Virus genome (UHGV): UHGV-0039337 | Source: a virus | Reading direction: 5' to 3' (one strand) | DNA length: 64,000 nt | In this document: positions 3,439 through 41,811 of the stretch, in pieces | Layout of the letters: the number at the start of each line of letters is the position of its first letter | Position numbering within the stretch: position 1 is the stretch's first letter | Notes under the pieces: model-generated | The model's input: the letters and a program-made list of their open reading frames with translations, nothing else | What the model was told of the DNA's origin: nothing | The model's database searches: none | Translations under genes and position numbers: made by a program

Positions 3439-5139
3439 GTGATAAATATTAAAATAATAGAGCGTAAAGCTGATATAAATAAGGTAAATGAATTATCAAA
3501 TAAATATAATATATCAAAAGATATAGTTAGTTTTCTATTAGGGCGTAATGTTCCTGATAATATAATTCCATTACTTGTAGCTAAAAATGAGATAGATTTA
3601 TTACCATATGATTCATTGACTAATGTAAAAGAAGCAGCAAGTATTATTGCTAAACATATAGAGAATGATTCCAATATATTTATATACGGAGATTATGACG
3701 CAGATGGAGTAAGTGCAACTTATATCATGTATCAAGCTTTAGTGGAACTAATAGAAGCTAACCTACAATACAATAGTAGCGTATATTATCATTTACCTAA
3801 TAGAAGTGAAGGATATGGACTTAATATAGATTGGTGTAAAGCTATTCCTACTAATAACTCATTAGTTATAACAGTTGATAATGGAATAACAAAAAGAGAA
3901 GAAGTTGAATATTTAAAAACTAACAATATAGAAGTGTTAATAACTGATCATCATAAACCACAAAAAGGTATGATACCAGACTGTACAATAGTAGATGCTC
4001 ATCTATATGATACAGATAATATAAATTCTTGTGGATTATGTGGCGCTGCAGTAGCATTTAAAATTATAGCTCAATTATATAAAAACTATGGATACGACTA
4101 TTCTTATATAAAAAAATATGTAGCACATGTAGGTATAGCTACTATAACAGATGTAATGCCTTTTACAGAAGAGAATGTAATATTTATTAGTAATGCTTTA
4201 AAATATATAAATGATTATCCTTATAGTAATGAAGAATACGCTCCAGTAACAGAATCTATATATTATTATGCTGAATCAAATAAAGGTAGTAAAGTTACTC
4301 CAAAAGACATAGCTTTTGGATTTGGTCCTCAAATAAATAGTTGTGGTAGAATGGGAGATATTCAAGTAGCTATGGATTTTATGTTAGCTACAGATGAAGA
4401 AGAACTATCAAATGTATTTAAAACAATGTGTCGACTTAATGACGACAGGAAAAATAAAACTAGCTTAAATATGGTTACTATACAACCTCCAAAGCTAACT
4501 GATTTAGCATTAATAATAAAACTTAATAATATAGAAGGTATAGCAGGATCTATAGCAAGTAATTTGTGCGAACAATACAATATGCCAGTAATAGTATTTA
4601 ATAACGAAGATGAAATATTATCCGGTAGTGCAAGATGTCCTGAATGTTATGATATGCAATGGTTATTGAATAATACAGATCATGTACTAACATTTGGTGG
4701 ACATACTAGTGCCGCAGGATTAAGCATAAAAGCTAAAGACTTTAAAATATTTAAAGACTCTTTTAATAAAGCAGTATCTAAAGCTCCCGTATCCGTATCA
4801 ATAGATGATACAGTATATGTAGATAAGATATTAACATCGTCTGATTTAAATAAATATACTATAACTCAATATGATAGCGTATTATTCTTTAATGAATTTA
4901 CTAGACCTATATATGCTTTAGAAAATATATACATAAAAGGCTATCATTTATCTAAAAATAATCCTAACAATATATGCTTTCATATTAAAACGAAAACTAA
5001 AGAAGTTAAGGTATGGTGTTGGGGTTACAAAGATAAATATAAAGCATTAGGTGAACCAAGTTTAGTAAATATAATAGGTTCTCTTGAAATATTTAACGGT
5101 ATGTTTGTAATAAATATATTAGATATAGAAGCGGTTTAA
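3439..5139 (+). CDS. RecJ-like DHH/DHHA1 phosphoesterase (single-strand DNA exonuclease)
   Basis: GTG start with a GGGAG RBS. DHH motifs are present: IYGDYDADGVSAT (motif I/II) and LITDHHKP (motif III). The length is RecJ-like. Confidence 0.7.
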   Translation: MINIKIIERKADINKVNELSNKYNISKDIVSFLLGRNVPDNIIPLLVAKNEIDLLPYDSLTNVKEAASIIAKHIENDSNIFIYGDYDADGVSATYIMYQALVELIEANLQYNSSVYYHLPNRSEGYGLNIDWCKAIPTNNSLVITVDNGITKREEVEYLKTNNIEVLITDHHKPQKGMIPDCTIVDAHLYDTDNINSCGLCGAAVAFKIIAQLYKNYGYDYSYIKKYVAHVGIATITDVMPFTEENVIFISNALKYINDYPYSNEEYAPVTESIYYYAESNKGSKVTPKDIAFGFGPQINSCGRMGDIQVAMDFMLATDEEELSNVFKTMCRLNDDRKNKTSLNMVTIQPPKLTDLALIIKLNNIEGIAGSIASNLCEQYNMPVIVFNNEDEILSGSARCPECYDMQWLLNNTDHVLTFGGHTSAAGLSIKAKDFKIFKDSFNKAVSKAPVSVSIDDTVYVDKILTSSDLNKYTITQYDSVLFFNEFTRPIYALENIYIKGYHLSKNNPNNICFHIKTKTKEVKVWCWGYKDKYKALGEPSLVNIIGSLEIFNGMFVINILDIEAV

Positions 5140-5160
5140 TCAACCGTTTCTTTTTTTATG
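5132..5160 (+). terminator. Terminator-like hairpin after the recJ-like gene
   Basis: CGGTT-TAATCA-AACCG stem followed by TTTCTTTTTTTAT. Confidence 0.4.
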
Positions 5161-5197
5161 CTATAATATATACTAAATATAAAATGAAAGCTAGGGG

Positions 5198-8100
5198 ATG
5201 ATTAATATAAGTTTTATACATTGTCATGTTCATACAATTTATTCTATGCTCGACGGCTACTGTAAAATAGATGACTTAATAGAAAAAGCCAAAGAATATA
5301 ATATGTCTTCAATATGTATAACTGATCATGGTACACTTGCAGGTATTTATGAGTTTAATGATAAATGCAAAAAAGCAGGATTAAAACCTATATTAGGTAT
5401 TGAAGTATATCAAACTCATGACATATCAAAAATAATACTGCCAGTAGAAGAAAGAAAAAAGATAGCTTGGGATAAATATTTAGAAATAAACAATATAACA
5501 GATGAAAAAAGCCTAGGCAAGCTAACTAATAAGAAAAAAGCAGAACTAAGTTCAGAATATATATATGATACCAAAGGATATCATTTAATCTTAATAGCAA
5601 AAAACCAAACAGGTTGGAATAATCTCGTTAAGTTAAGTAGTAAAGCAAATGATATAGCAATGTTTAATGGTAAAGGGCATATAGATTATAATTTATTAAA
5701 GCAATATAGCGAAGGATTAATATGCACTACAGCATGTATAAGTTCTATGTTTAATCATGCATTATCTAACAATAATATGGATAAAGCTGTTAAGCATATA
5801 AAAATATTATTGGATATATTTCATGATGATTTATACATAGAGTTACAACCTTTAGAATGGAATAAGCAGGTTGAAATAAATAAAAAAGCTATTAAAATAG
5901 CTAAACAATATAATATTAAAACTATAGCAACTAGTGATGTACATTATACCAATTATGAAGATGATTATGAACACGATATATTATTATGTATAGGTACTGG
6001 CAAAACATATAACGACCCTAATAGAATGAAATACGATCATGAATATTGGTTTAGAAATGAAAACGAAATGATAGATGGTTTTAATAGAAGTAATTATACA
6101 AGTGAAGAGATGCAAGCTATTAAAACTGCTATAAATAATACAACATTATTAGCAGATACTGTAGAAGATAATATACAAGTAGGTAGCGATCATGAACTAT
6201 TACCAGAGGTAGATGTACCTGAAGGTTATACAACTAAATCATGGTTAAAGCGTCAATGCTGGACTAACTTATATAAATATCTAACAGACAATAACTTAAT
6301 GGATAAACGTTATATTTATGAGTCTAGATTAAAAGAAGAACTTGATGTAATAATAACTAAAGGTTTTGCTGGATATATGTTAATAGTTCAAGACATAATA
6401 AATATTGGTCAACAAGCTGGTTGTAGTTTTGGGCCTGGACGTGGTAGCGTTGGTGGTTGTCTTGTAGCCTTCTTGCTCGGCATAAGTAAAGGAATAGATC
6501 CTATTGAATATGGATTACTATTCTTTAGATTTTTAACTGTTTCTAGAACTGCAAATCCAGATATTGATAGCGACTGCAGTCAGGTTGATAGACAAAAACT
6601 ATTAAGAATAATAAATAATAAGTATCATAACACTAATGTTACTCAAGTAGGTACATTAACTACATTAGGAGTTAAAAATGGCGTTAAAGATGTCATGCGT
6701 GTATTGAATTATAGTTTTGCAGAATCAAATGCTGTATCTAAAAAATTAGATGAAATATATGCTGAACCAGATTTATCTTTTAAAAAGCTTGATAGTTTTG
6801 AATCTGAAGATCCAGAATTATATAAAAAATATAAAGAGTTAGAATCAGAATATCCTAACGTATTTAAGTTAGCACGTAAATTTAATGGATGTCCTAGAAA
6901 TATGGGAGTACATGCTGGAGGTGTAGGTATAACACCTACTCCAATAAATGATATATATCCTACTAGAAATATTGATGGTAAAAAAGTTACTGTATGGGAA
7001 AAAGATACAATAGAAAAAGCAGGAATCGTCAAAATAGATATGTTAGGATTAAAAACTATATCTGTAATAGAATTATGCTTAAAGTTTATAAAAAAGAATC
7101 ATGATATAGATATATCATTAAACGAACTTTATAATAATAAAGAAATACGTAATGATTCTAATGTATTTAATATGCTATCAGAAGGTAAAACTGATGGTGT
7201 ATTTCAATTTGAAAGTAACTTATTTAAAAATGCTTGTAAGAACGTTAAACCTACAGATATAAATGACTTAATAGCAATTACTGCATTTAATAGACCTGGC
7301 CCATTATCTGCCGGCTTCGATAAGAAATATGCTAATAGAAAAAATGGATTAGAACCTGTAAATTATCCTTTAGGTTGTGATGATATATTAGGTGATACAT
7401 ACGGATGTCTATTATATCAAGAACAATGTATGTTAATATCAAAAAAGGTAGCTGGCTTCGATGATAATCAGGCAGATACATATTTAAGAAAATCACTAGC
7501 CAAAAAGAAACGTGCTTTAATAGATCTTTGTAGACAGTGGTTTATATATGGAAAACCTGAACATGACGAATACGGATCACCTATAGAAGGTGGTATTAAT
7601 AGAGGATATGATGAACAAGAACTTAAAGACTTTTTCGATGAGTTAGAAGGGTACGCTAGTTACGTTTTTAATAAAAGTCATGCAGCGAGTTATAGTCTTC
7701 TAACAGTAATTAGTGCATGGTTAAAATATTATTATTCTGAAGAATTCTTTGCAGCTCTTCTTACTTATTCAGTTGATGAAAAAGCTGATTTATATAATGA
7801 TATATTAAGTAAACAATATGACATACATATAACTGTACCAGATATAAAGAACTTATCTGAAAATTATAATCCAACACAAGGTAAAATAGCATATGGAATA
7901 TCTAAAATAAAAGGAGTAGGTGCTACAGCAATATCTACTATATTAAATGCAGGACCATATGAAAGTGTAGAAGATTTTATAACTAAAGTAAATAAGTATG
8001 ATAAAGCACGTGGTAGTAAAAAAACTGTTAATAAAACAGCTATTATTGCTCTTATTAAAGCAGGAGCTTTTGACTCCTTGGGTGAAACTAATAGATTTAA

Positions 8101-8509
8101 ATTAATTAATCAAGCTTATAATGCACGTAAAGATAAAGACGAAAGACTTGATGAATCTACATGGTCAAAATCTTGTGCTCAAGCATTAGAAATAGAGGTA
8201 TTAAATACATCTATAACTTATCCATTAATATTTAATTCTGCTATGGATAAAGATATTATAACTTTAGAAAACTGTAGAATAATAAACGTTACTGAGAAAA
8301 AAGATAAAAATGGTAAACTTATGGCTTTTGTAAAAGTAAAAGTTAATGATATAGAACCAGTAGATGTTGTAGTATTTAGTAGTTTATATTTAAATAATTA
8401 TGATTTATTTGATGTTAGATATGGCGATGTTATAAATATAACAGGAGAAAAAGACGGAAAGAAATTAAAATTTAAGAAAGGAAGAAGAGAAAAGAAAGAA
8501 GATAATTAA
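5198..8509 (+). CDS. dnaE: DNA polymerase III alpha subunit, DnaE-type (copy 1), with an N-terminal PHP domain
   Basis: Carries the PHP motif HCHVHTIYSMLDG, the catalytic region GPGRGSVGGCLVAFLLGIS, FNKSHAASYSLLTV..YY, and a C-terminal OB-like tail. The length is 1103 aa. Confidence 0.85.
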   Translation: MINISFIHCHVHTIYSMLDGYCKIDDLIEKAKEYNMSSICITDHGTLAGIYEFNDKCKKAGLKPILGIEVYQTHDISKIILPVEERKKIAWDKYLEINNITDEKSLGKLTNKKKAELSSEYIYDTKGYHLILIAKNQTGWNNLVKLSSKANDIAMFNGKGHIDYNLLKQYSEGLICTTACISSMFNHALSNNNMDKAVKHIKILLDIFHDDLYIELQPLEWNKQVEINKKAIKIAKQYNIKTIATSDVHYTNYEDDYEHDILLCIGTGKTYNDPNRMKYDHEYWFRNENEMIDGFNRSNYTSEEMQAIKTAINNTTLLADTVEDNIQVGSDHELLPEVDVPEGYTTKSWLKRQCWTNLYKYLTDNNLMDKRYIYESRLKEELDVIITKGFAGYMLIVQDIINIGQQAGCSFGPGRGSVGGCLVAFLLGISKGIDPIEYGLLFFRFLTVSRTANPDIDSDCSQVDRQKLLRIINNKYHNTNVTQVGTLTTLGVKNGVKDVMRVLNYSFAESNAVSKKLDEIYAEPDLSFKKLDSFESEDPELYKKYKELESEYPNVFKLARKFNGCPRNMGVHAGGVGITPTPINDIYPTRNIDGKKVTVWEKDTIEKAGIVKIDMLGLKTISVIELCLKFIKKNHDIDISLNELYNNKEIRNDSNVFNMLSEGKTDGVFQFESNLFKNACKNVKPTDINDLIAITAFNRPGPLSAGFDKKYANRKNGLEPVNYPLGCDDILGDTYGCLLYQEQCMLISKKVAGFDDNQADTYLRKSLAKKKRALIDLCRQWFIYGKPEHDEYGSPIEGGINRGYDEQELKDFFDELEGYASYVFNKSHAASYSLLTVISAWLKYYYSEEFFAALLTYSVDEKADLYNDILSKQYDIHITVPDIKNLSENYNPTQGKIAYGISKIKGVGATAISTILNAGPYESVEDFITKVNKYDKARGSKKTVNKTAIIALIKAGAFDSLGETNRFKLINQAYNARKDKDERLDESTWSKSCAQALEIEVLNTSITYPLIFNSAMDKDIITLENCRIINVTEKKDKNGKLMAFVKVKVNDIEPVDVVVFSSLYLNNYDLFDVRYGDVINITGEKDGKKLKFKKGRREKKEDN

Positions 8510-22420: not shown

Positions 22421-25400
22421 TTACGCTCCTATACTATTTATTATTATTTTATTATCATCTGTAAACTTTCCTTTAAAGTTTATAGTTTTGTCTTTTTTTA
22501 AATTACTTTTATATTTATCTAGATTGAATAATAAAGCTTCATAATTACCTTCTTTAGTATCTAATGATATAAAAGCATATCTCTTTCCTGATTTAGCTTT
22601 ACGTTTAGTCACTTTTGTTATAATAGCTTGGCCACTTACATAAATATCATTATATTTAAGGTCTTCCAGATTACAACACTTATTATGAATATAATTAGCT
22701 TGACATAAAATTAATTCTATCTCATCTTCTGATGCATATAGTTCCAGGTTAGTATCTTTATTAATGAATATAGAGTATTTAGGTGGATCTGGATGTTTTT
22801 TCTTGGCTGAAAGATAATATAATTCTTCATATAATTCTATAACATTAGAGCCAAATGCTCCTATTGCTATCATGCTATTTAATGCTTTTGTATTACATAT
22901 ACTTTTATTTACATGTTTATATATATGAGCCACTAAAGAATCATCTTTATTTTCTTTTTCTTTATTTAGCCAATAAGTAGCAGCATTATAAGCGTTCTCA
23001 GATACATTTGCAAGGCAGCAGAAGCCGAGTCTAATCCCCTCTGTTTCTACTGTACATTTGTATTTTGATTTAGTTATATCAAGAGGTAGAAATTTAATAC
23101 CTACTTTCATACATTCATTTTGTATTGTTTTAAATTTAGCTTTACGTTCATCAGTTTTACCTGATTTATTATTATACATACAAGTTAAAGTTGCCGCATA
23201 AAATTCTTTAGGATAGTAAATTTTATAATATGCTGTTTCATAACAAGTTAAAGCATAAGCTACAGCATGAGATTTGTTGAAACTATATTTCCCTGAATCT
23301 AATATTAATTGAAATATTTTTTCAAATATATCATCAGTCATAATATTTTTACTTAACTCTTTTAATTCTGCTTTATATGAAGCTATTTTATCAAATTTTT
23401 TTTTGCTAGATGATTTCATAAGCGAATATGCTTCATGCAATGGCAATCCCATATTTGCACAACATTGCATTAATTCTTCTTGATAAATCATAACTCCATT
23501 AGTTGTCTTAGTAGCTTTATCATAAGCTGGATGTATATATTCTATATTTTCTTTGCCTTCTTGTATTTTCATATAATGTTCATCGAGCCCTGATTGAATA
23601 CAAGGGCCACGGACAAGAGCAAGACAATCAGCAAGTTGTTCTATATTACGTGGGTTTAATCTTCTCATGCGTTGTTTGTAAGTATTACTGCCTATTTGAA
23701 ATAGCCCTGTAGTATTACGAGAACAGATTAAATCCCATACTTTTTTATCATTTAATGGATCAAATTCTATATCTATTTTATGACCTGTAAGTTTTTCACA
23801 TTCGCTTAATATACATAAAGTATTTAATCCTAAATAATCATATTTTACTAAGGCCTGACTTTCTGCATCATGTAAATCAAGGGCTGTAGCATTTAATTCT
23901 TTTTTGTCTTGTCTAACCATTGGTGCTACATCAGATACTTTAGATTTAACTATTAATGTACCTGCTGCATGTATAGAAGTATGACATGGTAAACCTTCAA
24001 GCTTCATAGCCATTTCAAATACTTCTGGATATATTTCTTGCCACTCTCTAAGTTCTGGTACTATCTCTAATGATTCTTCTATTGATAAATCGCTTTGCTT
24101 TTCTGTGCCATCTTCAGATTCTTCATATACACATTGAGGTATTAGTTTAGCTATTTTATCTTCGGTCTTTAAGTCTATATTATATAATTTGCATACGCTT
24201 CTTATTGATGATCTTGCTTTACGTATACTAAAAGTAGATACAGCTGCACAATGATCAAGTCCATAAGTATCTAAAGTATACTTAAACATAATATCTCTAT
24301 AGTCACTAGGCACATCTATATCTATGTCAGGGTATTGTGCCCTTGCGGTGTATACTTAAAAATCTATCAAACATAAGATTATATTTAATAGAATCTACTT
24401 TGGTTATTTGAAGTAAATAAGCAACAATAGATCCGCATACGCTGCCTCTTCCAGGGCCCATTTTTGCTCCAATCTTATTCATATATTGTATTAGATCTCT
24501 TGTTATTAAAAAATAAGAACTAAATCCTAAATCATCTATAACTTTAAGCTCTTCATACATTCTATCAACGTATTGTGCTGGATTTTTAATTTTATATTGT
24601 ATTTGATCTAATCTTTCTAAACATAATTTTTCTATATAAGTTTTAGGAATATAACCTGTAGGACATTCAAATTCTGGAAGGTTTAACTCTTCTTGGTTGA
24701 AATCATATGATTCAACTTTATTAGATAAGTCCATAGTATTGTCTAATGCTTGATTAATTATATCTGCATTATACAATTCACTATTAAAAGAATTAAAGAT
24801 TTCATCTCTAGACATCATATAATATATTTTATCTGCATATATACTTTCATCTTCATTTTCTGGTGCTTTTAAATTACGCGTAATTCTTATATGAAAATCA
24901 TGAGTTTTCCAATCTTCCTTATTTATATAATGCACATCATTAGTAGCAATGAGTTTAATGTTTTTCTCTTCTGCTATATTAATCATTGCATTATTAACTT
25001 TAATTTGTTCATCAAAATTACCTGGTTGAATTTCTAAATATAAGTCATCTCTGAACATATTATATAATTCTTCAATATGATTAATAGCTTGTTCATTTTC
25101 ATTGTTTATAATAAGTTGAGGGGCATATCCTCCTACACAAGCTGTAGTACAGATAAGCCCCTCAGTATAGTCTTTTATATGTTCTAAATCTATACGTGGT
25201 TTATAATAATAATATTCAACAGATGCATCTGATACTATTTTCAATAAGTTAGATATGCCTGTTTTATTTTTAGCTATTAATACCATATGATATAACTTTT
25301 TATGTTCACTGTCTTTAATAGTACAGTCTTCACATAAATATATTTCACAGCCTATAAGTGGTTTAATATTATTGTTTATACACTCATAATAGAATCCATA

Positions 25401-25577
25401 CATATTACTTAAAGATCCGTGATCTGTTATAGCTATGGATTTCATATTAAGTTTTTTAGCTTTAGCAATTATATCTTTATTTGTAGCGATGGAATCTCCT
25501 ACCGATCCTTTTGTAGTATGCAAATGAGTTATGCAATAATTATTATAATAAGAAGTCATCGTTATCATCTTCTTCAT
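22421..25577 (-). CDS. dnaE: DNA polymerase III alpha DnaE-type (copy 2); the reading frame needs a +1 shift at CCC-TGA-C (plus 24326-24332)
   Basis: The N-terminal ORF (25577-24327) has PHP motif HLHTTKGSVGDS and GPGRGSVCGSIVAYLL, ending ...HRKGTIP-stop. The +1 frame continues directly as DIDIDVPSDYRD..., matching copy 1 (NPDIDSD), with FNKSHAVAYALTCYETAYYKIYYP downstream. The merged length of about 1046 aa is normal for DnaE. Confidence 0.65.
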
Positions 25578-25857: not shown

Positions 25858-26253
25858 TTATTCCTTTCTATATTCTTTACATTCTTGATTATTATATTCT
25901 AATATTTCTCTTAATATTGATCTATGACATATAATATCATTTTTTTCATAACAGATAAGGAATATAGTATATCCTTCATTATTTAAATCTATTATTTCTT
26001 TTAATCCATCAATGAAAAATGGATTGTCAAATGACTCATCTATATATTTTTGTCTATACTCTTTCCAATCAATACTACCATCTTTATACTTGGCTAATGT
26101 AAGTTCCGTGGGCGCAAGTTGAGGCGCCCACTCTATATTATATTTTTTTACGTTTATAGTATTTCTAGGTTTCCATCTAGTTATTAAAAATTTCTTAGTT
26201 GTATCATCATTTGGTAGATTTTTTAAGTTAGACAAATAAGTTGTGTATATCAT
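25858..26253 (-). CDS. DUF488-family protein
   Basis: LITRWKPRN...WAPQLAPTELTLAKYKDGSIDWKEYRQKY...IFLICYEKNDIICHRSILREIL matches the DUF488 pattern (W.P.LaPS..L...y..g.i.W.eF...Y..e ... C.E......CHR). Confidence 0.5.
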   Translation of the reverse strand: MIYTTYLSNLKNLPNDDTTKKFLITRWKPRNTINVKKYNIEWAPQLAPTELTLAKYKDGSIDWKEYRQKYIDESFDNPFFIDGLKEIIDLNNEGYTIFLICYEKNDIICHRSILREILEYNNQECKEYRKE

Positions 26254-26549
26254 TAATGACAGCCACCATTACAAACTCCATTACAATCTCTACTACATGT
26301 ATGTGCTTTTGATTCATTTAAGTTATGAGAAAACTTTTCTTTTCTTGAATCATACTTTTCTTGCATCATACTTCCAGTAGAACCATAACCATCTGCACCT
26401 CTTGTAGTTTCATCTAATTCATCTACTATAAAAGGTTGTGCTTCAAGTACTGGACATAATACTAATTGCGCAATTTTAGCATATTTCTTTAATACAAATG
26501 GTTCTGTTCCTATATTTTCTAGTTCAATACCTATTTCTCCTCTATATTT
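26253..26549 (-). CDS. dut: dUTPase exon 2 (motifs III C-terminal half, IV and V)
   Basis: Begins KYRGEIGIELENIG, then ...AQLVLCP, then TRGADGYGSTG (motif V). The TTG used by the ORF caller is in fact the last codon of the intron, ending in omega-G. Confidence 0.7.
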   Translation of the reverse strand, partial: KYRGEIGIELENIGTEPFVLKKYAKIAQLVLCPVLEAQPFIVDELDETTRGADGYGSTGSMMQEKYDSRKEKFSHNLNESKAHTCSRDCNGVCNGGCH

Positions 26550-27401
26550 CAATTTGTTATGTATAGGCTCTTTATCCTATACTCTCCTACTTTCGTAGAA
26601 GTATCGGACTATATCATTAACTCTCATATAGAGAGCAGAGCGGGGCGCTCGTGTCGGTTTTATTGTTTACCTTACTCAACCGTTAGTCTCTGAACCTTCC
26701 GTATACTTTATAGGCTTCTACGGCTTGGCTGCTGATTAGCATATCTTTCGACTTAGCCTTCCAGCAATTCACCCCGTTTAAAGACTCCAAATTTATTTTG
26801 CTTTATTATATTTTCCTAAAATGTCATGTAATTTGGAATGCTTTGATCTTGATAATATAATTAAATTAGTAGGATCATTATTTATTTTATTTTCATCTAT
26901 ATGATGTACATCATAATTTGGATTTAAATACCATTTGCCATCTATTAATACTGCACAAGATTCAGTAAGTAAATACTGTTCTGCAATTAGCCTATGCTCT
27001 CTAATTCTTCCGAATTTATTTGCAAAAGGATGATCGGGAACATAAACATATATGTAATCATTATACAGTATTTTATTTTGAGTAAAACTAGCATTCAATG
27101 GACCTTTTAATCCATATTGATGATTTCCTTCTCCTTTCATATAATTACTTTTATTGATAATATTACACTCTTCTGAACAAGTTATCATATCTGGATGTTT
27201 TAGTCTTTTAAGTCTTGAAGGTTTAACATAAAATTTTGTGCCGCATATACAACATGAAACATTTGGTTTTTTATTCCATTTATTATACATGTCAGCACAC
27301 GCATGACTACAAACATTTTTTCTATGCTTTTTTATATTATCTGTTTCGTATTCTTCATTACAATAATCGCAATGTCTTAACAATTAAGCGACATCTCCCT
27401 T
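26550..27401 (-). mobile_element. Group I intron (852 nt) in dut with an HNH homing endonuclease gene
   Basis: Splits dUTPase motif III (GTIDS | KYRGEI). Exon 1 ends in U and the intron ends in G. The GC-rich 3' core contains canonical R (GGUUCAGAGACUAAC) and S (AAUGAUAUAGUCCGA) elements forming P7, GACUA paired with UAGUC. Confidence 0.7.
26793..27383 (-). CDS. Intron-encoded HNH homing endonuclease
   Basis: Carries DVHHIDENKINNDPTNLIILSRSKHSKLH (HNH) plus N-terminal Cys-rich zinc fingers. It is in frame with dut exon 1, separated only by TAA, and the ORF caller used a TTG start. Confidence 0.6.
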   Translation of the reverse strand: MLRHCDYCNEEYETDNIKKHRKNVCSHACADMYNKWNKKPNVSCCICGTKFYVKPSRLKRLKHPDMITCSEECNIINKSNYMKGEGNHQYGLKGPLNASFTQNKILYNDYIYVYVPDHPFANKFGRIREHRLIAEQYLLTESCAVLIDGKWYLNPNYDVHHIDENKINNDPTNLIILSRSKHSKLHDILGKYNKAK

Positions 27402-27740
27402 AGAGTCTATAGTACCTGGAGCATTAGGTATTCTTATTTTAGTTTTTAAACCATTACCACTTGTAGGTCTAGCTTGCAATTCTGTGCCTAATGGTATAGA
27501 TGATGCCCAACCAGTGCATGCTAATACTGTTTCTCCTGGCATTATTATCCATGAGGAAACTCCTTTTGCAAAATCTTTATTATCCTCATATGGTTTTTTG
27601 TCTTCATTGAGTCTTTTTAATGCTATTGCAAACACATCCATTCCGCTATCTCCTGGATGTGCATATTTTAATTCTATAGCATCTTCTCTTAATCTTTTTA
27701 CTTTAATAGGCACTTGCGTATAAAAATTCAGTTTAATCAC
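27402..27740 (-). CDS. dut: dUTPase exon 1 (motifs I, II and the N-terminal half of III)
   Basis: Contains HPGDSGMDVFA (motif I), ARPTSGNGLK (motif II-like) and ends GTIDS at the 5' splice site. Confidence 0.7.
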
Positions 27741-33971: not shown

Positions 33972-35753
33972 CTAAAATCTAGTTATTAAATTAGGATCTA
34001 TTTCTTTTATAAATCTAGATATCTTAACATACTTAGATTGTCCATTTATTATTTGATTTTGTGGATATAACATAAATAAATAATCTTTAGCTCTTGTTGC
34101 AGCGACAAACATTAAACGTCTTTCTTCTTCTATTTCTTTAGGAGCAGTAGATCTAAAAGATGGTAAGCATCCTTCAGCTAAATCTATTATCATTACTGCA
34201 GTAAATTCTAATCCTTTAGATTTATGAATAGTAAGTAAGTTAACTGCGTCATCTTCATCTTCTAGTTCTTCTTTGTACAATGATGCTTGTATTACTAAAT
34301 CTTCTATTGTATCATACTCTTTAGCTACACTAACTAGTTCTTGTAGATTTTCTTCTCTATCTGTTAAGTCTTCTCCTTTGTATTGTTGTTTGAACCATGC
34401 ATAGTATCCTGTATTTAATAATATATATTGTATTAGTTCATATGGTTTCATTTCTGTAACAGCTTTTTCTAATTTATTTATTACATCAACATATTCATCT
34501 ATAGAATTCTTAGCTTTACCTTTTAACGGTAAATTCTTATGAATTATAGCATCACGTACATTTAAATTATTGTCTCTGCAAAAGTTTTCTATTTTTTGTA
34601 ATGATACATCGCCTATACTACGTTTAGGACATGATACACTACGTTTAAATGCTTGAAAATCATAAGGATTGACAAGTAGTCTAAGATAACTAAGTACGTC
34701 TTGTATTTCTGCTCTATTAAAGAAAGGAACACCACCAAATATTTTATATTTGATTTTGTTTTCCATTAATACTTTTTCTACATTACGTGATAAATAATTA
34801 TTTCTATATAATATTGCCATATCTTTATAATCTACGCCTTTACTGTGCATAGTTTTAATATATGCTACTGCCTTTTTAGCTTGTTCTTGTTGTGATTTAC
34901 ATGTAGTTACTACAGCATTCATGCCTTTTATATTACGACCACATGATACTTCTTTATCTATTTGATTACTATTATGAGATATTATAGATTTGCCTATATT
35001 AACTATTGTTTCTGTACTTCTATAATTGATTCCTAAGTTATACATTTTAAGATTAGGATAAATAGCTTTTAGATTTATCATATTGTCTACATCTGAGAAT
35101 CTAAAGCCATAGATAGCTTGATAATCATCACCAACAAAGAATATGTTATTATTTGGTCCACTTAATAAATAAGTTAGTCTAGTATCAGCTATAGACATAT
35201 CTTGGCTTTCGTCGCTACTTACATATTTCCATCTATTGTTTATAGTTTCTTTAATGTCTTCGTGTAGTTCTAATAATTTTATAGTATTAAATATTAAATC
35301 ATCAAAGTCCATAACCATTTGTCTTTTAAGTTCATCTTGATATTTTTCATACATATCAGCTACTTGTTTTTCTGTATCATTTGTAGCATTATTCATTGCT
35401 TGTTGAGGAGTTTGGTAATGTGCTTTAAATGCAGCTATAGATGTTTTTATAAGTCCAGCATCTATATTATAAGCTTTGCTTAATTGTTTTATTATCTTAT
35501 CACTATCATTTTCATCCACTATAGTAAATGTTTTAGTATATTCTAATCTATCTGCATATTGTCTTAGTATTCTATTACATATGCTATGATAAGTACCAAC
35601 AGTAATTCTTTTTCCTTTTTCTCCTACTTTATCTACTATACGTTCTTTCATTTCATTAGCTGCTTTATTTGTAAAAGTAGTTAATAATATATTTGCTGGA
35701 TCTATACCATTTAATATCATATATTGAGCTCTTGCTACTATGACTCTAGTTTT
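33972..35753 (-). CDS. UvrD/PcrA/Rep-like superfamily 1 helicase, exon 2
   Basis: Begins KTRVIVARAQYMILNGIDPANILLTTFTNKAANEM (motifs I-end and Ia), with UvrD-type motifs downstream (FVGDDYQAIYGFR, LGINYRS). The in-frame sequence upstream of the called ATG supplies the KT of the P-loop. Confidence 0.7.
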   Translation of the reverse strand, partial: KTRVIVARAQYMILNGIDPANILLTTFTNKAANEMKERIVDKVGEKGKRITVGTYHSICNRILRQYADRLEYTKTFTIVDENDSDKIIKQLSKAYNIDAGLIKTSIAAFKAHYQTPQQAMNNATNDTEKQVADMYEKYQDELKRQMVMDFDDLIFNTIKLLELHEDIKETINNRWKYVSSDESQDMSIADTRLTYLLSGPNNNIFFVGDDYQAIYGFRFSDVDNMINLKAIYPNLKMYNLGINYRSTETIVNIGKSIISHNSNQIDKEVSCGRNIKGMNAVVTTCKSQQEQAKKAVAYIKTMHSKGVDYKDMAILYRNNYLSRNVEKVLMENKIKYKIFGGVPFFNRAEIQDVLSYLRLLVNPYDFQAFKRSVSCPKRSIGDVSLQKIENFCRDNNLNVRDAIIHKNLPLKGKAKNSIDEYVDVINKLEKAVTEMKPYELIQYILLNTGYYAWFKQQYKGEDLTDREENLQELVSVAKEYDTIEDLVIQASLYKEELEDEDDAVNLLTIHKSKGLEFTAVMIIDLAEGCLPSFRSTAPKEIEEERRLMFVAATRAKDYLFMLYPQNQIINGQSKYVKISRFIKEIDPNLITRF

Positions 35754-36936
35754 CGAATTTGTTATCGTGAGGCTTTTTATCCTTCACTTCTACGGCTATT
35801 AACCGTAGTCCAGCATATTTTTTCGTGTGATTACTAACTGTGAACACGGTGCGGCCTCGTGGGTTCATTATACTCCTTACTTATAAGGTAAGGGATCAGA
35901 ACCTATGCGTTGCGCCTGGTCGATATTACTATCGTCGCTCACATTACTGCTCGCTAGCTTTTCAGCACCTTCGGTCTCGAGTAGGCTGTCTTTTGACTTT
36001 ACGCCATCCTCGCTTAATTCCGCACTAATACTCTCAGGATTTCTCACAGTCTTATCCTGAGACGGCAATATTCTAAATACTTATTATATTTTCTATCTAA
36101 ATAAACGGTAGCATCTTTATATATATAATCAAATATTTTTTTTAACGAATCAATTTTAAAAATATTTAACGAAGGAACTCTATTTTTATTATTATATATA
36201 TGAATATCATCTTCTTTTAATGTAGAAGTATTTATGATGGCGTTTTTTATATCTTCTAGTACTTGGAAATTATAAGAAACAATTGACCATTTGCAATTTC
36301 CTTTTGTTTTCTTTTTGCCAGATAAACTAAAAGATCCATCTCCATCAAAAACGCCTCTTATAAAATGATGCATAAATTCTTCTGGGATGTTTGGAATTTT
36401 CCATCCATAAGTTTTATTGTGCATTACACCGAGTTCTCTTAATCTATTTGCCATATATGGATCTTGAATAGTAAGTCTATAATATGCATATCCAGATACT
36501 ATCCTAGTGCTGATTTTATGTTCAGCTTCCATATCTGTTTTAAATTTTTCTATGTGTTCCTTATCTTTTATGCATACTTCTAAACTATTCTTTTTTGATA
36601 AATGACCATCAGCAAATATAAAGCCTAACCAATATGCACTTTTTTCATTCCATTCATCAAAGAATTTATTATTAAAATATTTTTTATTATGTTGTGCATG
36701 TTTGGTATTTATTCCTTTTTCGTTAAATTTTTTAGCTAAATAATTTCTATCTCTTTCTAATAATTCAGCTACTTTTGTTAAACTTAATCCATTATTATAT
36801 AATTTGATTGCTATGTTTAATTCTTCTTCAGATATTGATTTTCTAGGCATAGTTAAATTTCTCCTTTATAAAAATATATTTAACTATTTATTACCTAGAC
36901 ATGCCGTTTATTTATTTAAGCATTTAAAAATTATCT
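35754..36936 (-). mobile_element. Group I-type intron (1183 nt) in the UvrD-like helicase gene, with a LAGLIDADG homing endonuclease
   Basis: Splits the Walker A motif (TATAGAG | KTRV). Exon 1 ends in U and the intron ends in G. The GC-rich 3' core (35754-36043) is homologous to the core of the AAA-gene intron. It shares a 3' terminal motif AGGAUAAAAAGCCU..AUAACAAA..G with the dut and AAA introns, and has an S-like AAUAUGCUGGAC. Confidence 0.6.
36044..36850 (-). CDS. Intron-encoded double-motif LAGLIDADG homing endonuclease
   Basis: SAYWLGFIFADGHL and HHFIRGVFDGDGSF. It is a paralog of the ORF at 61078-61941. Confidence 0.7.
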   Translation of the reverse strand: MPRKSISEEELNIAIKLYNNGLSLTKVAELLERDRNYLAKKFNEKGINTKHAQHNKKYFNNKFFDEWNEKSAYWLGFIFADGHLSKKNSLEVCIKDKEHIEKFKTDMEAEHKISTRIVSGYAYYRLTIQDPYMANRLRELGVMHNKTYGWKIPNIPEEFMHHFIRGVFDGDGSFSLSGKKKTKGNCKWSIVSYNFQVLEDIKNAIINTSTLKEDDIHIYNNKNRVPSLNIFKIDSLKKIFDYIYKDATVYLDRKYNKYLEYCRLRIRL

Positions 36937-37038
36937 ACCTGCACCAGCAGTAGCAGTAGTTAAACTAGGTCCTTTTATATGCTTAACAGCTGCTTTTTGT
37001 CCGTCGTTTAATCCTTGCAGCAATTCTTCTGCATTCAT
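36937..37038 (-). CDS. UvrD-like helicase exon 1 (34 aa), not in the ORF track
   Basis: A GGAGGT RBS lies 8 nt upstream of the ATG at 37038. The exon encodes MNAEELLQGLNDGQKAAVKHIKGPSLTTATAGAG, the UvrD N-terminus up to the P-loop, and ends ...GGT before the intron. Confidence 0.6.
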
Positions 37039-37081
37039 ACATTAATACCTCCTTTTAAATAATTTATTATACTATCACCTT

Positions 37082-39045: not shown

Positions 39046-39618
39046 TTAATTATTTTTTGCTAATAATTTACTAGCAGATTGTACTGATTTAGTATTTATT
39101 TTTCTGTTAGATTTTTGTTTAGGTTCTTCTGATGCATATAATGCTCTACCTTTAGCCCATTCTTCTAAATCTTTTATCTTTTCTTGAGAAGATATAGTTA
39201 TAGGTATTACATCATTTTTAGCTGCTATTAAATCTGCTTTAGTTACTTCAAACTTCTTACCTTCTTTGGTACATCTTAAGAATGCTTTCTTCATGCTATT
39301 TTTAACTATTTGTTCTATTTCTGCTCCAGTATATCCTTGAGTTTCTACTGCTATATCTTTTATTATTTTTTCAGATACATCTAAACCTTTTTTGTTTATA
39401 TGGACTTTGAATATTTCTTTTCTTTCTTCTAAGTTCGGAGTATTGAAAAACCATATATTATCGACTCTACCGGCTCTAGTTAATTCTGGTGGTAAATCTT
39501 TTACATTATTACTAGTCATAATACAGAATATACCATTAGTATTATCATTTAACATTTCTAATATAGTTCCAAAGACTCTTGATAAAGTCCCTGAATCTGA
39601 AGCGTTTGAACTTGCATA
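39046..39618 (-). CDS. AAA+ ATPase exon 2 (sensor 1, arginine finger, sensor 2 region)
   Basis: The in-frame upstream extension YASSNASDSGTLSRVFGTILEMLNDNTNGIFCIMTSNNVKDLPPELTRAGRVD matches the AAA+ second region of homology. The 3' splice site was placed by analogy with the conserved AUAACAAA..G| terminus of the dut and helicase introns. Confidence 0.55.
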   Translation of the reverse strand, partial: YASSNASDSGTLSRVFGTILEMLNDNTNGIFCIMTSNNVKDLPPELTRAGRVDNIWFFNTPNLEERKEIFKVHINKKGLDVSEKIIKDIAVETQGYTGAEIEQIVKNSMKKAFLRCTKEGKKFEVTKADLIAAKNDVIPITISSQEKIKDLEEWAKGRALYASEEPKQKSNRKINTKSVQSASKLLAKNN

Positions 39619-40775
39619 CGTTTTGTTATCAATAGGCTTTTTATCCTATTTTCTGGGGCATTATACCCATTATGAACCTGTTAATTCAGGTTCCAGTCCA
39701 GCATATCTTTTCATGGATTAAATACCACACCATGGAACGGCCTCGTGGACACATTATATTCTACATAGTAGTTTCAGTGTCTATGCGTTGCGGCTGGTTA
39801 AGCTTTTAAACTTATCCTTCACCTCTGATTACGGACATTACCCGCTTTCCAGATTTTTTCCGTTCTAATAATTCTAAGACTTCTGTGGTTTCGTCTTAGA
39901 ACGGCTAATAAATCGTCCTTTTTCATCTCTTGAGATATATGGATGCTCAAGAGCATGACAGTCTTGACATAATGTGATTCCGTTATTAATATCATTAAAT
40001 TCTTTTGAATTTAATATCTTATCTATATTCATATCATATTTATTGCATATATCATATAATTGATTTACATGGTGAGCATGTAAGTTCTTTTTTGTTTTAC
40101 ATTTAGAACATTCATATTTGTCTCTTTTAAGGATCTTTGCTCTCCATTCATCATATTTTTCATGCGTGCGTAAATAATGCGAAATTTCTTTGTAAGTTTC
40201 TTTCTTATTGGTTCTATATTCATCATAGCATTCTTTACTACAAAAGTGCTTTTCGGCTCTATTATATGCATATTTATTTTTTTCAAATTCTTTATTACAA
40301 TTATCACATATTACAATTTGAGTTTCTTTTTTTGCATATTCAATTCTGCATTTTTTATTACAGAAATGCAGATTATGTTTATTTTTAACAGCTAGCACTT
40401 CTTTTCCACAATTATTACATTTAACAAATTCTTTATTTTTACGTTGTTCTGCTATTCTGCATTCAATAGAACAATATTTTGGAATTTGTCCACGCTTACT
40501 TTGTTTATTATAATATGATTCTTTAAGCTTAAAATTTTTACCACAATGTTGACAAATAAGCGAAATTTCTTTACTATATTTTACTTTTCCTTCTTGTTTT
40601 GCTAATTTAGCATGCTCTTTACAGCAATGAAATACTTTATTTTTGCTTTCATTGTATCTTGTAATGGTAATTTTAAACTCTTTATTACAATAATTGCATT
40701 TGACTATCATTATATATCACGTCCTTAATATATTTATTTATTAAGGTATTACCGTGAATGAACGATTTATTTATT
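39619..40775 (-). mobile_element. Group I-type intron (about 1157 nt) in the AAA+ ATPase gene, with an HNH homing endonuclease
   Basis: Separates the Walker B exon (...LLIDEVEKNLGG, ending GGU) from the sensor-1 exon. The GC-rich core at 39619-39873 is homologous to the helicase intron core. The 5' junction is uncertain by +/-1 nt because of a 1-nt conflict between my count and the ORF track. Confidence 0.5.
39874..40710 (-). CDS. Intron-encoded HNH endonuclease with multiple CxxC zinc fingers
   Basis: C-terminal HAHHVNQLYD...NGITLCQDCHALEH (HNH), with six or more CxxC pairs N-terminal. Confidence 0.65.
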   Translation of the reverse strand: MIVKCNYCNKEFKITITRYNESKNKVFHCCKEHAKLAKQEGKVKYSKEISLICQHCGKNFKLKESYYNKQSKRGQIPKYCSIECRIAEQRKNKEFVKCNNCGKEVLAVKNKHNLHFCNKKCRIEYAKKETQIVICDNCNKEFEKNKYAYNRAEKHFCSKECYDEYRTNKKETYKEISHYLRTHEKYDEWRAKILKRDKYECSKCKTKKNLHAHHVNQLYDICNKYDMNIDKILNSKEFNDINNGITLCQDCHALEHPYISRDEKGRFISRSKTKPQKS

Positions 40776-41811
40776 TACCTCCCAAGTTCTTCTCTACCTC
40801 ATCTATTAATAATACACAAGGAGCACAAGATTCAACTAAAGTTTTAACTTGAGCAATCTTTCTTTCTGATTCACCAACAAATTTAGTAAGGACAGAACTC
40901 ATATTTAATTTTAAAAATGGTACGTTTAATTCATTAGCTATAACTTCTGCCATATAACTTTTACTAGATCCTGGAACTCCTAATGCTAAATATCCTTTAG
41001 GCATATCAATACCTATTTCTCTAGCTTTAGGAGACATACATATTTTAGTTTCTTCGAACCATTCTTTAAATCTATGATTACCTCCTACATCATTCATTGT
41101 TGCTTTTGCCTCTTTGTAGTCTAACAAACCACTTGATTTTATCATAGATATTTTCTTTTCTTTTAACATTTCATAACTTAATTCATCATATTTAACATAT
41201 GATTCATCAAGAATTTCTATTATTTCTCTTCTACTATAACCTATAAAGTATTTATATACTTCTTCTGTATCTATTTCTTGATTTCTTACTTCAGCATAAT
41301 CATTTATTAATTCTTTTATATCTTCATCTGTTAATTCGTCATAATTTAATTCTTTAAACAAATGGTCTAATGTTGCATTTGATTGATGAGTAGGACTAAT
41401 AACTATAATAGGAGTATATATAGATTGTTTAAATTCTAATATTTCTCTGAATACTCTGGACCATGCATAATTTCCATATAATAAATCCATATCTTTTAAT
41501 ATGATAGCTGATAGTTCCATACTTTCTTTATCGCTTTGTATCTTATTATATAAAGATAATATAGCGGCACCACTAGTACCATTTTTAACTCCACTACTTT
41601 TATCTAGCATTTCTTTTACTATATTATTTTTACTATCAGTATTTAATTTATATATACCGGAAGATGGTTCAAAATCATATATAACATCTATACCTTCTTC
41701 TTTTAGAGTATTTATAACAGAAGCTACAACTTCTTTTTCTTGTTCAGATTTAATCCATATAGCTTCTTTTTTTATTTCTAATAATAAAGCTAATTCTTTA
41801 TTAAATTTCAC
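40776..41811 (-). CDS. AAA+ ATPase exon 1 (Walker A and Walker B)
   Basis: Walker A is LALGVPGSSKS and Walker B is CVLLIDEVEK. The ORF ends with a stop three codons into the intron. Confidence 0.6.

Follow-up and report, generated by a model that had tools for sequence, protein, structure and literature searches.

A probable mobile group I intron carrying a LAGLIDADG endonuclease gene in the Walker A motif of a phage helicase gene of the UvrD/PcrA type

Background

The closest described relatives and parallels of the locus reported here include group I introns of phages. The DNA polymerase genes of the Bacillus phages Bastille, Eyuki and Belinda carry a group I intron, known as the I-BasI intron; the Bastille copy splices in vitro and in vivo, and the DNA polymerase intron of W.Ph. 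self-splices in vitro (PMC11878797). In the Bacillus jumbo phage AR9/PBS1 the gyrase A gene (AR9_g044) is annotated as a join of three pieces. The td and nrdB introns of T4, of subgroup IA2, carry the endonucleases I-TevI and I-TevIII, and their ORFs are located in other loops (P6a) than the one occupied in the intron described below.

Here we report a computational analysis of a locus in the viral genome UHGV-0039337, within a stretch of 64,000 nucleotides (the window). Comparison with related sequences makes it very probable that a mobile group I intron, which would splice and home, occupies positions 36936..35754 (minus strand) within a phage helicase gene of the UvrD/PcrA type. This kind of element is well known; the family to which the window copy belongs is a large group of phage introns that Rfam fails to detect.

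Results and Discussion

The helicase gene and its joined product

An earlier note on this DNA had proposed that the Walker A motif of a UvrD/PcrA-like helicase is split by an intron of 1.18 kb, and its coordinates hold when set against intron-less homologues, introns at the same site and covariation in the RNA. The gene is organized as follows:

37047..37052, minus strand: ribosome-binding site GGAGGT of exon 1, 8 nt upstream of the ATG at 37038, by direct reading of the sequence
36937..37038, minus strand: helicase exon 1, 34 codons (MNAEELL...TATAGAG), 3' end GGU with U at 36937
35754..36936, minus strand: predicted group I intron of 1183 nt, 5' AGAUAA and 3' ...AAAUUCG, boundaries taken from intron-less homologues and same-site introns
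33972..35753, minus strand: helicase exon 2, 593 codons and a stop, N-terminal KTRVIVARAQY

The 34-aa first exon and its GGAGGT, both named in the note, are present in the sequence. Exon 1 encodes MNAEELLQGLNDGQKAAVKHIKGPSLTTATAGAG, after which its ORF continues into AGA TAA. The large ORF (33972..35720) starts with MILNGIDP and has no P-loop; reading upstream in the same frame to 35753 gives KTRVIVARAQY. Joining 37038..36937 to 35753..33972 yields a protein of 627 aa with ATAGAGKT, conforming to A-x4-GKT, as had been predicted.

Exon 2 has Pfam matches to UvrD-helicase, UvrD_C, AAA_19 and UvrD_C_2. By itself it covers positions 26-268 of the UvrD-helicase profile (198.7 bits), and the joined protein covers 1-268 of 271 (231.6 bits), exon 1 restoring positions 1-25. 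The full motif set of SF1A helicases (UvrD/PcrA/Rep), including Walker A (motif I), is found only after exon joining; UvrD_C is also present. An alignment to PcrA, suggested as a check, extends over residues 5-646 of 1pjr (E 6e-104), stays ungapped across the junction and sets exon 1 against residues 5-36, and the joined protein aligns end to end with the PcrA, UvrD and Rep structures. Judged from the gain in Pfam coverage and from the PcrA alignment, the evidence for joining the exons exceeds chance.

The same gene could instead harbour a decayed group I intron that has lost splicing, leaving a helicase pseudogene or a protein without P-loop translated from the ATG at 35720. Against this, both exons are intact and in frame, free of stop codons and frameshifts. 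Moreover, no Shine-Dalgarno sequence is found in the sequence before that ATG, and an SF1 helicase deprived of the Walker A lysine and threonine is unable to bind ATP.

Relatives with and without the intron

The insertion point lies between the Gly and Lys codons of Walker A (ATAGAG|KT). Homologues without the intron (L001 and L002, 57% protein identity) continue ...GGTGCTGGT|AAAACTAGAGTCATA... across the position of the window's exon junction, reading GGT|AAAACTAGAGTCATA uninterrupted at the nucleotide level. The intron-less target is present in the relatives L001-L004, with the sequence ACTGCAGGTGCTGGTAAAACTAGAGTCATAATAGC in L001, and all of the best 15 helicase homologues from cultured phages are uninterrupted (15/15). 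A megablast search of the locus against cultured phages gave no match.

Three related phage contigs (L005, L009 and L153) have an intron at the same codon boundary as the window. Two of them, L005 and L153, read GGU|AGAUA...G|AAR ACN, each with a homologous LAGLIDADG ORF, and in L009 the intron is a 377-nt element without an ORF that retains a remnant of the last codons of one. The terminal intron base is a G directly before exon 2 in all four same-site introns, the window copy included; the exon-final U and intron-final G foreseen for this locus are U36937 and G35754.

Elements of another kind were also considered at this site. The same P-loop holds inteins in two phage UvrD homologues, L024 (GSGK|C...N|T) and L030 (AGAG|C...N|SGKT), which speaks for an intein; here an intein is ruled out because stop codons in the helicase frame directly follow the junction (AGA TAA). 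Group II introns have the consensus termini GUGYG...AY, unlike the AGAUAA...UUCG of this element, which moreover lacks a reverse transcriptase ORF and whose helices show group I topology. Regarding translational bypassing, an insertion of 1.18 kb is too long, and we know of no bypass near that length. An intein, a group II intron or bypassing is therefore extremely improbable as an account of the locus.

The endonuclease ORF

The predicted group I intron contains one ORF with its own ribosome-binding site:

36861..36866, minus strand: ribosome-binding site AAGGAG, 10 nt upstream of the ATG at 36850, by direct reading of the sequence
36044..36850, minus strand: LAGLIDADG homing endonuclease ORF, 268 aa, double-motif, with an N-terminal helix-turn-helix-like region; located in the P1 loop

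The ORF is intact and, as anticipated, of the double LAGLIDADG type, with two motifs in one chain (YWLGFIFADGHL and HFIRGVFDGDGSF), each with an acidic residue, and Pfam matches to LAGLIDADG_3 (6e-8), LAGLIDADG_1 (1e-5) and a WhiA-type domain (1e-4). The nearest solved structures, all weak matches, are 2dch and I-OnuI variants. A protein database search returned at least 301 homologues, the best two being 96% and 68% identical; a search of viral contigs with back-translated peptide patterns found no relatives of the endonuclease. Three predicted RNA elements share sequence with the last nine codons of the ORF: the guide sequence, the P2 5' strand and a part of L2. The predicted ribozyme core begins inside this ORF, which sits in the P1 loop separating the 5' splice site from the guide sequence.

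A free-standing endonuclease gene might alternatively have broken the helicase into two parts, each translated on its own, that come together again as proteins, with no RNA splicing, for which the mobE-split nrdA of Aeromonas phage Aeh1 is reportedly a precedent. The start codons at 37038 and 35720 and the endonuclease's own ribosome-binding site would suit such an arrangement. It is contradicted by the position of the break, between the G and the K of the P-loop, and by a first piece of just 35 aa. In L009, in addition, the exons are separated by 377 nt of structured RNA without any ORF, and the conservation, with compensatory changes, of about 320 nt flanking the ORF is left unexplained. We consider a split at the protein level to have next to no likelihood.

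Structure of the predicted ribozyme

Positions 35775-36074 have a G+C content of 44-48%, compared with about 27% in the surroundings, in agreement with the GC-rich 3' core seen in the earlier note. The extent proposed there for the core, 35754-36043 plus the 5' 85 nt, stands in part: the 5' end of the intron does supply the 5' strand of P1, whereas the core starts at about 36068, inside the ORF. Because the ORF overlaps the guide sequence and the P2 5' strand, both would be missing from a fold of 35754-36043 with the 5' 85 nt. The first 86 nt of the intron contribute just the P1 strand to the structured core. The predicted elements, in transcript order, are:

36064..36068, minus strand: internal guide sequence UUGCC (P1 3' strand), partners exon GGU (36939-36937) and intron AG (36936-36935)
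36032..36062, minus strand: P2 hairpin, UCUCAGGAU (36062-36054) with AUCCUGAGA (36040-36032); compensatory changes in 9/9 pairs, single-sequence fold agrees
36020..36025, minus strand: P3 5' strand GUGCGG, partner 35854-35849; covariation in 6/6 pairs, 99.3% of cells paired
36019-36014, minus strand: J3/4 AAUUAA, directly after the P3 5' strand
35978..36012, minus strand: P4-P5 domain, by covariation and single-sequence fold; J4/5 and J5/4 purine-rich
36012-36009 with 35981-35978, minus strand: P4, CGAG with CUCG; 99.7% paired, 3/4 pairs compensatory
36005-36003 with 35986-35984, minus strand: P5, GGC with GCC, capped by a GUC/GAC hairpin
35915..35974, minus strand: P6 domain, CC (35974-35973)/GG (35916-35915) and GGU (35969-35967)/ACC (35920-35918)
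35904..35910, minus strand: P7 5' strand, A35910, bulged C35909 and GCAUA (35908-35904)
35862..35903, minus strand: P7.1/P7.1a extension, outer GGUUC/GAACC and inner CCUUAC/GUAAGG; compensatory in 10/10 pairs
35849..35854, minus strand: P3 3' strand CCGCAC, by alignment covariation
35824..35848, minus strand: P8 hairpin CGUGU/ACACG; compensatory in 5/5 pairs
35818-35823, minus strand: J8/7, A-rich (AAAAAA), after P8
35812..35817, minus strand: P7 3' strand UAUGCU, pairing with 35904..35910 and crossing P3 as a pseudoknot
35767..35808, minus strand: P9 and P9.1, CUACGG/CCGUAG and GUGAAGG/CCUCAC, with the conserved loop AUAAAAAG; single-sequence fold agrees
35754..35766, minus strand: 3' tail GAUAACAAAUUCG, terminal G35754; the tail GAUAACAAA...G is conserved across the family

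RNAalifold on a plain MAFFT alignment recovered P3, P4, P6, P7.1, P7.1a, P8, P9 and P9.1. In that alignment 90.3% of the cells pair, compared with 33-43% when the partners are slid, and 39 of the 66 pairs have changes on both sides. Among 80 distinct model-aligned relatives the value is 95.3% (34-42% when slid), with compensatory changes in 60/66 pairs; this second alignment was fitted to the model, which favours structure, and the plain-alignment figure is the fairer one. A single-sequence fold of the window core gives the same helices (z = -2.09).

Support is weakest for P5, which is 75% paired and takes two registers in the plain alignment. The P6 domain holds extra hairpins, including CGAUA-GUAA-UAUCG, and its GNRA-capped hairpin varies with compensation (GGUA-GCAA-UACC in L005, GAUA-GAGA-UAUC in L009). 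P7 is nearly invariant within the family, and its support comes from a few rare variants and one between-family comparison, in which two pairs are swapped with compensation relative to the Belinda/Bastille-type GACUA/UAGUC and the bulged C is retained. The pair G35908-C35813, beside the bulged C, is a candidate guanosine-binding pair. The outer helix of P7.1 is 35903-35899/35866-35862, and the conserved CCACGAGG comes after P7.1/P7.1a. Subgroup IA typically has additional helices between P7 and P3, and the location predicted for P7.1/P7.1a, between the P7 5' and P3 3' strands, points to this subgroup. An alternative P8, UAGCA/UGCUG, was dropped; only the combination of P7 GCAUA/UAUGC with P8 GUGU/ACAC covaries and fits group I topology.

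At the 5' splice site, U36937 forms a U.G wobble with G36066 within GGUAG/UUGCC. In about 25 ORF-less relatives the guide sequence forms a hairpin with GGU|, and among such relatives it co-varies with the exon or the intron start (GGCU/GGCC, GGGU/GCCC, GGUAU/AUGCC, GGUUC/GAGCC). P1 of the window copy has 5 bp, three with the exon and two with the intron, bridging a loop of 870 nt, and P10 with exon 2 reaches 2-3 bp at best; a P1 this short and a P10 this weak are points in favour of a decayed intron.

An intron family that Rfam does not detect

Searched with Rfam at the gathering score, the whole window gave just chance-level matches to unrelated families, and so did the intron, its core, the ORF-less L009 intron and five small family loci at E<=10. 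The check that had been advised, a fold against a group I covariance model, did not succeed: RF00028, the Rfam group I model, has no match at E<=10 on the window intron, the L009 intron or compact relatives. In a control the T4 td and nrdB introns score 40.3 and 35.7 bits with RF00028, below its threshold of 50. RF00028 is a poor detector here, because these proven introns score under the model's own threshold. A single group I model is described as insufficient for the diversity of group I introns (PMC6125680).

We built a covariance model of the family in this analysis (R1, used with default filters) and recovered the family with it and one short pattern. There are 87 matches (80 distinct sequences) in 99 viral-contig loci and the window, and the window copy, with 241.5 bits, is among the higher scores of the family. 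The blank Rfam search could be taken as a sign of decay; this score, together with core helices that are all fully paired in the window copy and an endonuclease ORF that is intact, argues the other way. Overall, we regard a decayed intron as very unlikely.

With blastn the family was found in 124 cultured-phage records. It also occurs in a few Bacillota genomes, and two further members lie inside the window, one in a gene for an AAA ATPase and one in a dUTPase gene. A 17-base pattern run on a 596-Gb collection of bacterial genomes gave four genuine members among the 100 matches listed, all in Bacillota; the pattern is too short for a collection of this size, and the other listed matches are chance ones in high-G+C genomes. 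Since the family was found in three places with a short pattern and R1, group I introns of phages are probably under-counted. These introns will escape standard pipelines based on Rfam, and where they go unrecognised the helicase, AAA ATPase and dUTPase would be annotated as truncated fragments.

Proposed splicing and homing

For the mobile group I intron that we favour, we infer catalysis, homing and a conflict between translation and folding, as follows. The helicase gene would be transcribed as a single pre-mRNA, in which the ribozyme core (~36068-35754) folds. Exon GGU and the first two intron bases would then pair with UUGCC 870 nt downstream to form P1, placing the U.G at the splice site. 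A free guanosine, held at the P7 G-C pair beside the bulged C, would attack after U36937, and the freed end of exon 1 would attack after the terminal G35754. The product would have the junction GCAGGU-AAAACUAGAG and be an mRNA for the full 627-aa helicase. The LAGLIDADG protein, made from its own ribosome-binding site within the P1 loop, would cut intron-less helicase copies in co-infecting relatives, and repair would copy the intron in. Since the guide sequence and half of P2 lie under the 3' end of the ORF, a single RNA molecule would be unable to fold P1/P2 while its endonuclease ORF is being translated.

A broader reading is possible, though we hold it tentatively and with some doubt. The clade with P7 GCAUA/UAUGC and a near-fixed guide UUGCC may be restricted to sites that end in the glycine codon GGU, and may therefore be steered towards Walker A motifs, whose codons are glycine-rich (G|KT, G|xGK[ST]), in unrelated ATPases (UvrD, ClpX-like, SNF2-like and terminase). 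The P1 loop could be a shared landing pad for exchanged LAGLIDADG and HNH genes, whose translation would compete with splicing because each P1-loop ORF overlaps the guide sequence. How group I introns are understood to work is unchanged by these findings.

Comparison with known systems

Homing introns and inteins both interrupt this gene in the same P-loop codons, an illustration of the convergence of mobile elements on the sequence least free to mutate. The inteins of L024 and L030 are homing elements too and lie where the codons of this gene are best conserved, at nearly the same site as the window intron; unlike the window element, they are in-frame insertions with a Hint domain and are excised from the protein.

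The T4 td and nrdB introns resemble the window intron as endonuclease-carrying group I introns in conserved genes of DNA metabolism, and extra P7-P3 helices are common to both. R1 has no match on the T4 region. The window ORF, in the P1 loop, overlaps the guide sequence; the endonuclease is a LAGLIDADG protein, whereas those of T4 are GIY-YIG and HNH proteins. The T4 introns reach 40 and 36 bits in Rfam, whereas the window family has no match.

The DNA polymerase intron of Bastille, Eyuki and Belinda is likewise a group I intron, and the phage gene it interrupts serves replication. R1 matches the Belinda copy over its full length, P2-P9.1, with 84.9 bits; the match to the Bastille I-BasI intron is weak and mainly in the 3' domain (33.3 bits, E 2.7e-9), and the two introns are 71% identical. 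The bulged C of P7, an A-rich J8/7, the P9.1 loop GAUAAA(A/G)AG and the tail GAUAAC are common to the Belinda intron and the window family. The P7 of the Belinda/Bastille type is the canonical one, whereas the window has its own; the Bastille-type endonuclease is an HNH nickase, not a LAGLIDADG protein, and the host gene and site also differ. Through Belinda, sequence similarity links the window family indirectly, in two steps, to the self-splicing Bastille intron. The W.Ph. intron, at a different site and with no R1 match, was rejected as an experimental anchor.

The gyrase A introns of AR9 belong to the same RNA family as the window intron: R1 matches both at full length (165.7 and 162.7 bits), and blastn also finds the shared core. 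They differ in host gene and sites, and at ~300 nt they are without an endonuclease ORF. The setting is also shared: the carrier is a jumbo phage infecting a low-G+C Gram-positive bacterium, and its genome has several introns.

The split helicase gene

The earlier note had proposed that the N-terminus of the helicase is encoded by a separate short ORF, and this holds: an ATG at 37038 (minus strand), preceded by GGAGGT at 37052-37047, opens a frame of 34 residues that ends in TATAGAG and then reads AGA TAA. The truncated helicase ORF was likewise described correctly, as its listed start is the ATG at 35720 and its frame is open upstream to 35753, reading KTRVIVARAQY. Joining the two pieces (37038..36937 and 35753..33972) gives a protein of 627 aa. 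The Pfam UvrD-helicase profile is matched from position 26 by exon 2 alone (198.7 bits) and from position 1 by the joined protein (231.6 bits). The suggested alignment of the 627-aa product runs end-to-end with PcrA (1pjr, E 6e-104), UvrD and Rep, and is gap-free at the junction, where ttatagagktrvivar is aligned with IMAGAGSGKTRVLTHR. The intervening 1183 nt hold the double LAGLIDADG ORF and the GC-rich core that were claimed: the ORF encodes 268 aa and is preceded by an AAGGAG of its own, and the core is an island of 300 nt with 44-48% G+C where the background has 27%. The segment 36936..35754 is a genuine group I intron, intact and carrying a LAGLIDADG homing endonuclease; its boundaries are exactly as first noted, and we infer that it splices and homes.

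Homologues with and without the intron

Viral contigs were searched with the joined helicase protein, yielding 30 loci. In two of these (L001 and L002, 57% identity) the helicase is uninterrupted and reads GCAGGTGCTGGT/AAAACTAGAGTCATAATAGCAAGAGCTCAATATATGATA; the ligated exons of the window would read GCTGGTGCAGGT/AAAACTAGAGTCATAGTAGCAAGAGCTCAATATATGATA, matching this position. Locus L005 is split alike, with an exon 1 ending in TATAGAG, a 315-aa LAGLIDADG ORF and an exon 2 starting with KTRVVV, and L153, found through its 68%-identical endonuclease, reads AGAG/AGATAA...CTG/AAAACT (slashes mark junctions). In L009 the exons are just 377 nt apart, with no ORF between them, and the sequence AGAUAAAAUAAAUAUUUAGAAAUUGCCGC retains the final codons of the lost ORF; such a remnant would be expected if the endonuclease had been deleted from the same intron. 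All four same-site introns (window, L005, L009, L153) have GGU before them, AGAUA at the start and G at the end. The exon junction is thus fixed by the continuous relatives and by the shared boundaries of the same-site introns. None of the best 15 cultured-phage homologues, which have about 36% identity and come from jumbo Bacillus phages and others, is interrupted.

Structure and covariation of the intron core

The region 36068-35754 takes the group I layout, first by hand and then by computation. P1 pairs UUGCC (36068-36064) with the exon GGU and the intron AG, the splice site having a U.G wobble. The core then follows in this order, 5' to 3':

First half: P2; P3 5' strand; J3/4 AAUUAA; P4; purine-rich J4/5; P5; J5/4; P4 return strand
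Middle: P6 with extra hairpins; P7 5' strand (A, bulged C, GCAUA); P7.1/P7.1a; conserved CCACGAGG
End: P3 3' strand; P8; A-rich J8/7; P7 3' strand UAUGCU; P9 and P9.1; tail GAUAACAAAUUCG

P3 and P7 cross, as in group I introns, and the additional helix that lies between them is generally known as the mark of subgroup IA (Hausner et al., PMC3984707). Relatives were gathered by the pattern CAACGCAT-N28-58-CACGAGGCC, and nearly all loci returned match the core profile. Given nine diverse members in a plain MAFFT alignment, RNAalifold predicted P3, P4, P6, P7.1, P7.1a, P8, P9 and P9.1 unaided, with compensatory change in 32 of 50 pairs. With P2, P5 and P7 added, 90.3% of cells in this alignment are paired, compared with 33-43% after shifting the partners by 1-3 columns, and 39 of 66 pairs change on both sides. 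The covariance model R1, built from the plain alignment with the added helices, aligned 87 matches (80 distinct), of which 95.3% of cells are paired against 34-42%, with 60 of 66 pairs compensatory; as this alignment is fitted to the model, the 90.3% figure is the fairer one. Folded alone, the window core gives the same helices (z = -2.09).

Position of P1 and of the endonuclease ORF

About 25 relatives without the ORF have the exon end GGU 10-40 nt ahead of the guide sequence, and the two form a hairpin. Both sides of P1 change together in these relatives (GGUAA/UUGCC, GGUUAAU/AUUAGCC, GGUAU/AUGCC, GGUUC/GAGCC, GGGU/GCCC, GGCU/GGCC), which identifies UUGCC as the guide sequence and therefore places the window ORF within the P1 loop. 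Its last codons, TGC CGT CTC AGG ATA AGA CTG TGA, overlap the guide sequence, the P2 5' strand and part of L2. The core had been taken as 35754-36043 together with the 5' 85 nt; in fact it starts at about 36068, and the 5' 86 nt give the P1 5' strand only. In the window P1 is short (5 bp), and P10 with exon 2 has at best 2-3 bp.

Insertion sites and inteins

In almost every family member with a visible splice site GGU closes exon 1, and the guide sequence UUGCC is nearly fixed (members in L031-L164, for example L078, L124, L125, L107 and L156). Exon 2 begins with Lys-Thr codons in 15 of the 80 distinct members. Pfam-confirmed hosts include GyrB and Terminase_6N (the match starts at profile position 10); UvrD and ClpX-like genes are further hosts, and one exon 2 starting with K-T has a weak, sub-threshold SNF2-domain match (22.1 bits, cut-off 24.9). 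The family is possibly biased towards Walker A codons, through a true preference or through sampling bias. Inteins were also seen in the same Walker A loop of two more distant phage UvrD homologues, L024 (2576-5836) and L030 (3014-4840), at GSGK/C...HN/T and AGAG/C...HN/SGKT, so that introns and inteins converge on the same codons. The L009 helicase (3998-6409) carries a mini-intein after FFVGDDDQ/C in addition to its ORF-less intron.

Other split genes in the window

Two further introns of the family were found, both on the minus strand:

40776..39619, minus, second intron (R1 189.3 bits)
41811..40777 and 39618..39046, minus, exons 1 and 2 of its AAA ATPase gene
40710..39874, minus, its HNH endonuclease ORF, in the P1 loop
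27401..26550, minus, third, more divergent intron (R1 66.7 bits, E 1e-17)
27740..27402 and 26549..26253, minus, exons 1 and 2 of its dUTPase gene
27383..26793, minus, its HNH ORF

The second intron splits the ATPase after EKNLGG (GGU/AAAUAAAU), and in the joined product Pfam AAA coverage grows from 2-68 to 2-129 of 131. The third splits the dUTPase at GTIDS/KYRGE, and Pfam dUTPase is matched by the joined product alone (7e-16); exon 1 ends in UCU, its guide region is AAAGCA and P1 pairing is not evident.

Within the 5' segment of the helicase intron, AGGUAAUAAAU (36895..36885, minus) is similar to the second intron's exon-intron boundary, AGGUAAAUAAAU. Its possible pairing with the guide sequence (GGUAA/UUGCC) is as good as that of the true site, and it may represent a cryptic 5' splice site or the fossil of an earlier insertion.

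A DnaE-type DNA polymerase III alpha gene is also in two ORFs (24327..25577 and 22421..24313, minus), one with the PHP domain and profile positions 2-99, the other with positions 110-260 and the finger domain. They are 13 nt apart, with no intron-sized gap between them; the split may stem from a frameshift, a sequencing error or an enzyme that is naturally in two pieces. A second, complete DnaE gene lies at 5198..8509 (plus).

The Rfam model and the altered P7

The group I covariance model test suggested in the earlier note failed: Rfam RF00028 gave no match at E<=10 on the window intron, nor, at the same threshold, on the ORF-less L009 intron or compact relatives. As a control, the proven phage T4 nrdB and td introns (L159 5509-5749 and 10596-10826) score 35.7 and 40.3 bits, under the gathering score of 50, so that these textbook introns, too, would escape a default Rfam scan. 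According to Nawrocki et al. [quoted passage not shown] The likely reason for its blindness to this family is the altered P7. The DNA polymerase intron of Bacillus phage Belinda aligns to R1 across the whole core (84.9 bits) and has a canonical P7, CAACGACUAG...AUAGUCUG, whereas the window family has CAACGCAUAG...AUAUGCUG; two pairs are swapped with compensation, and the bulged C is common to both.

Comparison with known introns

R1 matches both annotated gyrase A introns of the Bacillus jumbo phage AR9 (165.7 and 162.7 bits), whose CDS is annotated as a three-piece join, the gap of a split YomI-like gene in Clostridium phage c-st (113.9 bits) and a Staphylococcus siphovirus terminase intron (101 bits). 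It matches the Bastille I-BasI intron weakly (33.3 bits, E 2.7e-9), and the T4 introns and the W.Ph. intron not at all. The Belinda intron is 94% identical to that of Eyuki and 71% to that of Bastille, which splices both in vitro and in infected cells (PMC11878797). The AR9 introns (L151 2395-2692 and 2848-3146) are about 155 nt apart, and two or three family copies within a few kb, sometimes in one gene, were observed in L151, L078, L109, L063, L036, L057 and L068. A blastn search with a compact member returned 124 cultured-phage records, from phages of Staphylococcus, Bacillus and Clostridium, from Aeromonas jumbo phages and from Yersinia phiR1-37. Searched for in bacterial genomes, the bare pattern gives mostly chance hits, R1 confirming 4 of 100 loci, all in Bacillota.

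The helicase-intron endonuclease has at least 301 homologues, the best being 96% and 68% identical, and a 55%-identical relative lies inside a ClpX-like gene at GPTG/TGKS. Among solved structures, those nearest to it are I-OnuI variants and a LAGLIDADG enzyme from Thermoproteus (2dch). Since phage introns more often carry GIY-YIG, HNH, PD-(D/E)xK or EDxHD enzymes (Hausner et al., PMC3984707), LAGLIDADG is a less common choice in phages. Overall, the helicase intron is an addition to a known kind of element, its only oddities being the UvrD P-loop site and a family unseen by Rfam.
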